Notes under the pieces: generated by a model | What the model saw: the letters and a program-made list of their open reading frames with translations, nothing else | Database searches by the model: none | What the model was told of the DNA's origin: nothing | Program-made: the position numbers and the translations under genes | Origin: Pecten maximus | Lineage: Eukaryota | Assembly (NCBI RefSeq): GCF_902652985.1 | Contig: NC_047022.1 | Location: 16,430,001-16,494,000 of the forward strand | Length of the DNA stretch: 64,000 nucleotides | Direction: 5' to 3' | Shown: one piece after another, positions 6,681 through 9,600 of the stretch | Layout of the letters: every line of letters begins with the position of its first letter | Numbering within the stretch: position 1 is the first letter of the stretch

Positions 6681-9600
6681 TTAATAGTATGCTGCTGTGA
6701 TACTGAGCTTTTTAACTGCTTCAAGGAGTTCCTTTTCCTTGAGGAATGTAGACATATCCACAGGTTTAAAACCTGTCACTCCAAAACTCTCCAGTTTCTC
6801 CAGCCATTCCTTCTTACTTGATATATCAAACAGGGCTTGAGTTATTTTTCCTTTGAGATCATCTGAAAAAATTGAAAGAACACTTTGAAATATTGCTAGC
6901 AGATTCGTAAATCTCAAAACAAATTTTTATTCTCACTAAATATCTCAAATATCTCAAAATAGGCAACTACATTGTGTACATTTAGTCTATTTATTTCTCT
7001 TTGTCAAAGCAATAAAAATATCCCCAAATTAAAAAAAAAATTCCCAGGTTCTAAAATCACTAGGAGGAAGATATATAGAAATCACATAAACCAATTGCTA
7101 TGCACGCATATAACCACAGGGTCTTGACACGTTATCATGACACAGAATGAAATATTTAACCCCAGAATCCAACCCCCCCAATCACTTTTGAACTATCATG
7201 TATATGTAATTATAAGTAATCTGGGGTTGAATATTTACAAGTGATCTGGGGGTCGCATCCCTGTGGTTTATTATTTCATTCTGAATTATAGAATATAGCA
7301 TGCCCCTGAGTTAAAAACCAATGATTTAAGTATAGTTTGAGCGATGCCCTACCTGGGAGGCGGGAGTTAAATACAACTGGGTAGATAGGGAGAGGTCCAA
7401 AAGACTTCAGTACGGTGAGATTTTCTTTGTGCTGTGGGTTTTGTTGGAGGTAGTTGTGTAAAATGGTTGAGTCCACAGAGGCCGATAAGGCTGTTTTGTT
7501 GAGTACCATCTGTATAGATTTCAGGTGAGATCCTGCAATACAAAGTATACAAATAAACTTTACCTGGCAAAAGAGGCCAGATAAAAACCTTAAACACAGA
7601 AAATAAAGCTATTACCTGTCCAGGAGAAAACCTGTCTAAAGCGACCAGTACCACCCTGGAACACAGGGAACAATATATGCCATGCCCAAGCAACAGTCAG
7701 ACTTCAGACACAGTATAACTTAGGACACAAATATCAAGGTATGAAAGCCTCCTAAAACCTAGAAGACAAACTTTTTCCTCAACTACACTGAATGGACGTT
7801 GGTTCTTTGCGGATTTCCCCACTTTAATTTATTAGGACACAAAATACAGTTTACAGCTATCAAAGTGATAACCTGTCTAAAATGACCAGTCAGAACCTGA
7901 ACACGCCTGTACAAGTAAAATGTGTACAACAAAATACAGTTCATCAAATAAATGGGATTACTGTATTTGCAAATAAGCACTCCTCAAACTTTTAACACTG
8001 AACTTTTACACCAGTGAAGGGTTTGTTTTTTTAGGATAAATACAGCACCATAAGTCGATACTCCTCATACAGTTGTGACTGTAATCTATTTAAAAAAGAC
8101 TTACCTGATCGGAGGACATTGCCAAAGAAACTGGAATTGAATCCCATCTTTTTCAGCTCTTGTAGTACAACCAAACATCCACTGAGGGAGGCCTCGTCTA
8201 CATAGGCAAAACTGTGTCCTCGTAAGTCATGGACCTCTTTATATTCCCCACTGTAAGAGAGAAATCATTTGTCTGTATATTCCCCACTGTAAGAGAGAAA
8301 TCATTTGTCTTTATATTCCCCACTGTAAGAGAGAAATCATTTGTCTTTATATTCCCCACTGTAAGAGAGAAATCATTTGTCTGTAACTCTAACATATTTT
8401 AGTCAACTTCACTTATAATGAATGGATGGGAATAATTAAAAGACACTTTTAAACCAATCACAGGGATTTGTCTCAGATTCACAAACCTTGTTCTTAACAC
8501 CAATCACAGGGATTTGGCTCAAATTCACAAACCTTGTCTATTACATCAGTCACAGGGACTTGGCTCATGGTGTATTATACATGTAATTATACTGTATATA
8601 ATATTATTATTATAGACCTTTGGTTAGGACTGTTTGCCAAGTTCCTGTGGCTCCGATGATGTCTATTTGGCACATGTTTTAAAGCTGATACTTCAATCTC
8701 ACTTCCTACATCCTCATTTGTTTTTATCCTAATCAATGAAGGTTGGTGATTTGTGGTGTTAGATTCCTCTCAATACTTCATGTGTTCCCTATTCAACCTA
8801 TTTCACTTTCAACTAAGGTTTGTTAATTAACCAGACTACATACCATATTTTACCGGGTATCAAGGGGCCGATGCGCTGAAAATGGGCAAAAGTGGTAGGT
8901 GGCCGTCATTTTAAATCATAATAAACACATATTATTAAATGAGTTCTATTAAGGCCAGTTGGGTACCCAAAATTCTTTAGTGTGGCCATTGACCCTTTTA
9001 CCTTGACCAAAGACCATCAAAATATCATCAGGTGACCGTGTAGAACATGATGCTATATAGTATATACCATACAATGGTGTAAATGTGAGCTGGATCTGTG
9101 GTGGGGTTCATGAGATATCAAACAACACAGTCAAAAGTGAATACTACATAACCTAGCTTTTACTACAATGTGGGATGGGTGAGTGAGGTGTGGGGGAGTG
9201 TGGGTAAGGGGGGGGGGGGGGGTTGAGAGATATACAGTTTTGTGTAAAAGTACATTTCATGCTTACATGTCTGCTGTGTTGATGATTAGGTCGGAAAAGT
9301 AGACAGGATTTGCCTGACTCTTGGCGTGGACATGTAATGGGGCCGCCCCACATAACTCCACATACGAGTTCTTCTTCTGCTGCAGCGGTAGAAATGTTTC
9401 ACTACTCATGAACCCTATTAACAAACAGCATCAGCAGAAAATAGGATCACCATCACACATTATCTGATCAAAACACAATTGTGGTTTGGAATAACAAATA
9501 ATTCTGTCAAAGAACATTTAAAAAAGTATGGCCATTGATTGTAAAAGAAAAGTAAGTTCATACCTCAAGATAAAAGAGCTACATTATACAATGTATTACA

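Follow-up and report, generated by a model that had tools for sequence, protein, structure and literature searches.

An acceptor-side mirage minisatellite in a conserved gene of the scallop Pecten maximus

Mirage minisatellites, described in amphioxus, are tandem repeats of an exon-intron boundary with units of 10-160 bp. They can lie at either boundary, are unstable in length, with somatic instability reported for Adh3, and are reported to leave splicing undisturbed (PMC3087553, PMC3902484). Two human loci are also comparable. CBS 844ins68 is a polymorphic duplication on the acceptor side, with use of the distal acceptor and a normal mRNA (PMC2630376) and a preference for that acceptor favoured by G runs between the duplicated sites (PMC1802585). 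The 37-bp VNTR of F7 intron 7 is, in contrast, on the donor side, and its splicing is explained by 5'-to-3' scanning (PMC1557585).

An array of this type is present in the scallop Pecten maximus, in a 64,000-nucleotide stretch at 16,430,001-16,494,000 on contig 8 of the 918-Mb genome (hereafter the window), within a gene of five coding exons on the minus strand (6681-10818, Table 1). On that strand TRF finds a tandem repeat at 8236-8382 with a period of 36, 4.1 copies and 98% matches, bearing out the original prediction, made from the sequence of the window, that a 36-bp unit occurs four times at a splice acceptor. Each unit consists of the last 21 nt of intron 2 and the first 15 nt of exon 3, and because the array spans the exon-intron boundary it is structurally a mirage minisatellite. 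The polypyrimidine tract and the AG are kept in all four units, and after the four AGs exon sequence begins, on the minus strand, at 8358, 8322, 8286 and 8250. A single substitution, a G on the plus strand at 8275, marks the unit adjoining the true exon. That the copies are 98% identical suggests that the array is young.

Table 1. Coding exons of the host gene and decoy acceptors of the array, in window coordinates.
Feature	Position	Strand	Remarks
First coding exon	10632..10818	(-)	gene model
Exon 2	9267..9414	(-)	148 nt, ends phase 2
Decoy acceptor 1	8337..8358	(-)	in-frame TGA 8339-8337; ancestral intron context upstream
Decoy acceptor 2	8301..8322	(-)	in-frame TGA 8303-8301
Decoy acceptor 3	8265..8286	(-)	in-frame TGA 8267-8265; variant base 8275
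True exon 3	8105..8250	(-)	146 nt; RNA junction, Pfam PF12974
Exon 4	7353..7532	(-)	180 nt
Last coding exon, with stop codon	6681..6862	(-)	gene model

Joining exon 2 to any of the three upstream acceptors leads to a stop after 118 amino acids (the product ending in IGEYKDK or IGEYTDK), whereas 8250 alone among the four gives the 280-residue protein; both the premature stops and the single productive acceptor had been foreseen. In vertebrates a transcript whose premature stop falls over 50 nt before the last exon junction becomes a target of nonsense-mediated decay (NMD). The decoy stops lie 343-415 nt upstream of that junction, and by the vertebrate rule decoy-spliced RNA would be a predicted NMD target. 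None of the 16 other AGs in 8200-8460 restores the full protein except the in-frame one at 8211, at a cost of 13 amino acids, and those at 8380 and 8272 score below 0 on an acceptor matrix built from 35 acceptors of the same genome. With this matrix the four acceptors score alike, at 4.0 bits each for positions -20..+3. This is weak, near the bottom of the range of the training set (median 10.4, range 3.1-15.0 bits, the set being scored with the matrix derived from itself). Each TGA supplies the lone branch-point-like A in the intron part of the unit, which lies at -15 relative to the following acceptor. GGGG at +2..+5 in every unit places a G run between the duplicated acceptors. A TA-x-AGA motif is common to both edges of the array and is a plausible slippage microhomology; the 8275 variant matches the intron form of this motif and may mark a second crossover point. 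Gain of an intron by reuse of the units was considered and rejected, as the junction reads AG/TG rather than AG/GT and the units therefore have no in-register donor. Masking of the decoys by RNA structure was likewise rejected, the fold giving z = +1.56 and no stable structure.

Set beside the described systems, the scallop array most resembles the amphioxus mirages of Adh3, the globins BflGb6 and BflGb9, troponin C and PGBD5, which are likewise boundary copies carrying a splice signal. The BflGb6 mirage shares its acceptor-side position, and the 36-bp unit falls within the reported 10-160 bp. In both animals haplotypes differ in copy number (in the scallop as judged by depth) and regular splicing is the main outcome. 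The scallop array differs in belonging to a mollusc rather than a cephalochordate, in having only 15 nt of exon in each unit and in a unit that keeps the frame while carrying an in-frame stop. Furthermore, one RNA run (X8) hints at array-containing transcripts, whereas the amphioxus papers report no interference. With CBS 844ins68 the array has in common a duplicated 3' splice site with the start of the exon and a G run between the sites; the human allele, however, is one 68-bp duplication with a mechanism that was shown, as opposed to up to four 36-bp copies and a mechanism that is proposed here. Like the F7 VNTR, the array has an end unit spanning the boundary and identical pseudo-sites, silent in F7, and in both the site adjoining the exon body wins. 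On the acceptor side, however, the winner is the last acceptor to be made, and for this reason scanning cannot explain the scallop outcome.

The 280-residue product is identical to XP_033747530.1 (LOC117332650) of Pecten maximus and matches the Pfam family Phosphonate-bd (PF12974). Its likeness to the periplasmic oxyanion-binding proteins PhnD, PtxB and ArrX consists of this domain and of weak sequence matches to ArrX (E 7e-9) and, in the PDB, to PtxB and a phosphonate-binding protein. Unlike these bacterial proteins it is encoded by a spliced animal gene and lies far below the NCBIfam PhnD cut-offs (79.4 bits against 261.1 for TIGR03431, PhnD, and 93.4 bits against 112.05 for TIGR01098). It has no obvious signal peptide. 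Its relatives in scallops share 78-85% identity with it, and for a brachiopod, a hemichordate, an echinoderm and other molluscs the figure is 42-59%; no unit-sized insertion is seen at the exon 2/3 junction among 31 aligned proteins. A single genomic match was found for exon 3, indicating a single-copy gene; apparent matches on C6 were rejected as paralogues, being an unrelated 41-bp satellite. A search of protein collections for the truncated 118-residue product did not find it, which is weak evidence, there being two candidates and one match, to an 80-residue piece at 73%. Intron 2 measures 1016 nt up to the true acceptor and intron 3 measures 572 nt. Upstream of the array intron 2 is itself polymorphic at 8438-8567, with a 46-bp repeat in 2.6 copies and several linked substitutions, and run X5 holds an intron 2 allele in which the sequence past 8438 is unrelated.

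The repeat was sought in six of 24 known sequencing runs, three of DNA (X1, X2 and X5, from three studies) and three of RNA (X6, X8 and X10). All were analysed as Logan contigs, which are simplified, lossy de Bruijn paths at k=31 (PMC12424806). In all three DNA runs the exon-side contigs stop at 8265, the point at which a repeat loop has to interrupt them, and the two predicted pieces, a core of 39 bp and a loop of 57 bp, occur in X1 and X5. The depths in X1 are 52.3 for the core, 18.2 for the loop and 31.1 and 30 for the flanks; in X5 they are 118.3, 54.5, and 34.4 and 45.5. Compared with simulated genotypes, the unphased depth of X1 fits a 1+2 genotype, or about 1.5 copies per haplotype. Bin depths give 1.6-1.9 copies per haplotype for X2, and X5 has 1.85-3 depending on the estimator. 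Set against the four copies of the window, from which the sequenced animals may differ, these depths suggest fewer copies in at least two of the three DNA runs. The array is thus very probably a VNTR, as had been proposed, and expanded alleles are common, since the repeat loop occurs in three of three DNA runs from three studies. It is scarcely credible that the array is an assembly artefact of a single-copy locus, the alternative that the original prediction had itself raised. Neither four copies nor the words of the 8275 variant are seen in any run, the depth at 8270-8305 being 0 in X1 and X5, but the repeat junction is present in all three DNA runs, which excludes a single copy as far as the repeat itself is concerned, and in one RNA run. 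Moreover, in X5 the core minus the loop minus the exit leaves 18.3, about one haploid depth, and simulation shows this to fit a variant unit that has been pruned.

In RNA the acceptor at 8250 is joined to exon 2 in all three runs. In X6 the 9267-8250 junction is contained in one unbroken contig of 1076 nt at a depth of 55.9, and in X8 and X10 (the latter recorded as RNA) exon 2 is attached at 8250 at depths of 20.8 and 9.15, with the loose end of exon 2 at 8254 in each. No junction between a decoy and exon 2 is seen in any of the three, in contigs that drop minor forms. There is no cover on 8262-8557 in X6 and there are no array pieces in X10, although absence from lossy contigs is not proof. 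The assembler prunes short links whose depth is about a quarter of that of their neighbours, which leaves X6 and X10 with no more than a loose bound on decoy use. The RNA is also unphased, and the 8250 junction might derive from one-copy alleles. The claim that the last acceptor overrides those upstream of it therefore stands as a description of the main outcome, in unphased RNA; assignment of junctions to the four acceptors, which had been put forward as its check, gives 8250 in three of three runs and the decoys in none, with the array RNA of X8 remaining ambiguous.

In X8 a 45-bp piece (8221-8265) runs from exon 3 into the array at a depth of 9.0 and a whole 36-bp cycle is present, as a 66-bp piece, at 9.37, while no contig covers the intron at 8374-8480. 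Array sequence may thus be present in up to about 30% of exon 3 RNA in this run. Three simulated situations yielded the two pieces: splicing to the decoys that lie one unit and two units upstream, the junction words having been pruned; a two-copy allele whose RNA is unspliced, the exit into the intron having been pruned (expected cycle depth 11.2); and, with nothing pruned, molecules having 5' ends in the second unit. Splicing to the nearest decoy by itself does not fit. The 5' ends in the second unit may be those of decay fragments, of lariat intermediates or of a few duplicated fragments. A depth of 9 may itself represent very few molecules, because X6 has intronic contigs of 151 nt at a depth of about 3. 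Leakage or slow splicing is accordingly a weak hint from one of the three RNA runs.

Minisatellites of recent origin are frequent in this genome, 38 with a period of 20-100 and at least 90% matches being found in 200 kb sampled elsewhere. A crude exon finder was applied to 1,284,000 bases, made up of the window and 122 loci, and gave 293 candidate exons, 290 of them long enough. The 262 outside the window were compared with Pfam and 79 matched, of which 24 were dropped (5 already known POR exons, 10 frames of transposons, 2 histones without introns and 7 matches driven by repeats), leaving 55 Pfam-confirmed host exons from 25 loci. Amplified acceptors were found at three of the 55, in strumpellin (9 extra copies), VAC14 (59) and an exon encoding a C8 domain (2), and amplified donors also at three, in strumpellin, VAC14 and a syntaxin. 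The Wilson interval is 2-15% for acceptors and for donors each, from cases that are not independent, as two genes carry two arrays, and with wrong exon boundaries tending to reduce the number found. Of 864 intronic AGs lying 100-500 nt upstream, 84 were duplicated, against 3/55 for acceptors (Fisher p=0.47); amplified acceptors are neither enriched nor depleted and occur no more than by chance in this genome. False exons lying within repeats were rejected at 55912-56043 of the window, at L108:8043 and L120:1631, and in the coding repeats of L044 and L086.

The VAC14 exon (L068:7390-9960, plus strand; G000:C11 near 6.01 Mb) has mirages on both sides, with about 60 acceptor copies in units near 36 bp, each with 15 nt of exon, and four donor copies of 33 bp. 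Splicing to 7 of its 59 acceptor decoys would lengthen the exon while keeping it open and in frame, which makes this a better site at which to look for productive decoy use. Strumpellin (WASHC5; L040:6851-7290 and L041:2162-2467, both on the minus strand; G000:C4 near 14.01 Mb) also has two, a 34-bp acceptor array of 10 copies and a 21-bp donor array whose units are in frame. Donor-side arrays of 34-76 bp units in 4 to more than 30 copies are present at L065:4308, L052:5866, L038:8509, L033:5932, L015:7546 and L037:7569, one of them after a syntaxin exon (Pfam SNARE) and five after plausible exons that have no Pfam match. The exon portion of the unit is 15-18 nt in three independent acceptor arrays (window 8250, L040:6980 and L068:9664) compared with 22-52 nt in donor arrays. 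The short exon heads may reflect detection bias, the test needing about 12 nt, or selection, and the cases are few. A second mirage in the window, at 63386-63800 on the plus strand, consists of seven decayed copies of the head of an exon of the cytochrome P450 reductase gene POR (about 45 nt); six of the seven have the AG and each contains an in-frame stop. The true POR exon is 2.3-2.6 kb downstream, at G000:C8:16496027 (L026:6027), beyond a 161-bp array of 12 copies. The neighbouring genes in the window encode a GIDE plus RING E3 ligase (14832-18757, plus strand), a CBM20 starch-binding protein (25816-26232, minus strand) and a TCP-1/CCT chaperonin (36308-45156, minus strand), an intron of the last having a 40-bp array of 47 copies just past the donor, which is not included in it.

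It would seem probable that the array in the host gene formed by slippage, that its copy number varies between animals, and that the main RNA is made through the last copy by exon definition, with the extra copies tolerated. Replication slippage or unequal crossing-over would have duplicated the junction, perhaps starting at the TA-x-AGA microhomology at the two edges, and the array would then change in length. The copy joined to the body of the exon would always be the last acceptor and, judging from the architecture and the literature, it alone would precede a complete exon that the spliceosome could define. Exon 3, with its 146 nt and a weak acceptor, would be expected to depend on exon definition, and it falls in the long/long intron class because of the 1016 and 572 nt on its two sides. 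For that class a study of splice-site choice gives an exon-centric proximity rule and a reduced preference for the upstream 3' site (PMC9225289). The same study notes that the upstream preference of 3' sites as a whole persists, being weakened but not reversed under exon definition (PMC9225289), and this counts against the exon-definition account. The acceptor at 8250 is the one nearest the strong donor of exon 3, and the sequence following its +15 position is 53% GC with five enhancer-like motifs; the decoys carry 15 nt of exon only, with 33-40% GC and 0-2 such motifs following. The precedents point the same way, amphioxus mirages leaving splicing intact and G runs helping the distal acceptor in CBS 844ins68. 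The scallop unit has such a run, GGGG, although alone it would not discriminate between the acceptors, as it also follows the true one. The extra copies would be expected to leave with the excised intron and so to be tolerated, and any decoy-spliced RNA would be removed by NMD, so that the array would be near neutral. That expanded alleles are common although the gene is single-copy and conserved suggests such tolerance, as does the occurrence of the same structure in conserved housekeeping genes, namely POR, strumpellin, VAC14 and a syntaxin.

A less forgiving arrangement, in which alleles with at least three copies lose 10-30% of their transcripts to decoys or stalling followed by NMD, as a passive and unselected drop in expression, would seem unlikely. 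The array sequence attached to exon 3 at a depth of 9 in X8, next to an intron (8374-8480) without a contig, is consistent with it, as are the simulations in which use of two decoys or 5' ends in the second unit yield the 45-bp and 66-bp pieces, the weakness of the acceptor and the distance of the stops from the last junction. No decoy-to-exon-2 contig is found in the three RNA runs, however, and the exon 2 contig of X8 is unbroken, so that a decoy junction would need to have been pruned. Unspliced RNA with the intron exit pruned yields the same pieces, a depth of 9 may be a few duplicated fragments in view of the X6 intronic contigs at about 3, and no truncated product was found among shorter proteins. 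It is very unlikely that the expanded alleles are largely null, with the first acceptor winning and the correct mRNA coming from one-copy alleles, as part of the high genetic load of bivalves. The RNA is unphased, the depth of X1 fits a 1+2 genotype so that one-copy alleles probably exist, and the split in X8 might reflect a partly degraded second allele, but at least one expanded allele is present in each of the three DNA runs and in the window, in a gene that is conserved and single-copy, and 9 and 59 decoys are carried ahead of the strumpellin and VAC14 exons.

That the array is instead kept by selection as a rheostat, its copy number tuning expression through NMD, is highly improbable. The frame-keeping length of the unit, the stop in each decoy and the hint from X8 would fit such a device. 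Chance alone, however, keeps the frame in one unit in three, most intronic sequence soon meets a stop, the strumpellin decoys shift the frame instead, the copies are young by their 98% likeness, and arrays occur at about 5% of confirmed splice sites, no more than at intronic AGs. Because the same structure is found at several per cent of splice sites it is better seen as a mutational by-product than as a device. The copy-number rheostat suggested by the original prediction is not borne out here, with no decoy junction in three RNA runs and X8 ambiguous, and the literature listings searched yielded no account of an acceptor VNTR acting through NMD according to its copy number. Tolerated clutter, rather than a dial on expression, is the likely nature of the array.

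The scallop gene, itself conserved, thus holds a genuine mirage that is polymorphic and lies on the acceptor side, of a kind already known from amphioxus; a bivalve report of mirage minisatellites was not found in the literature searched, which was mostly outside subscription journals. Being small, frame-keeping and polymorphic, the array provides a clean natural minigene in which to study what makes the last of several identical acceptors prevail, and whether fidelity falls as copies are added. The probable presence of such arrays at some 2-15% of splice sites of this genome, suggested by a small survey, matters for annotation and for splicing-QTL work in this farmed species. It is doubtful that alleles with at least three copies divert a tenth to a third of their transcripts to decoy acceptors and decay, but if this were true mirages would be a large and overlooked source of heritable expression variation in scallops, at about one splice site in twenty, and would offer thousands of natural tests of acceptor choice.
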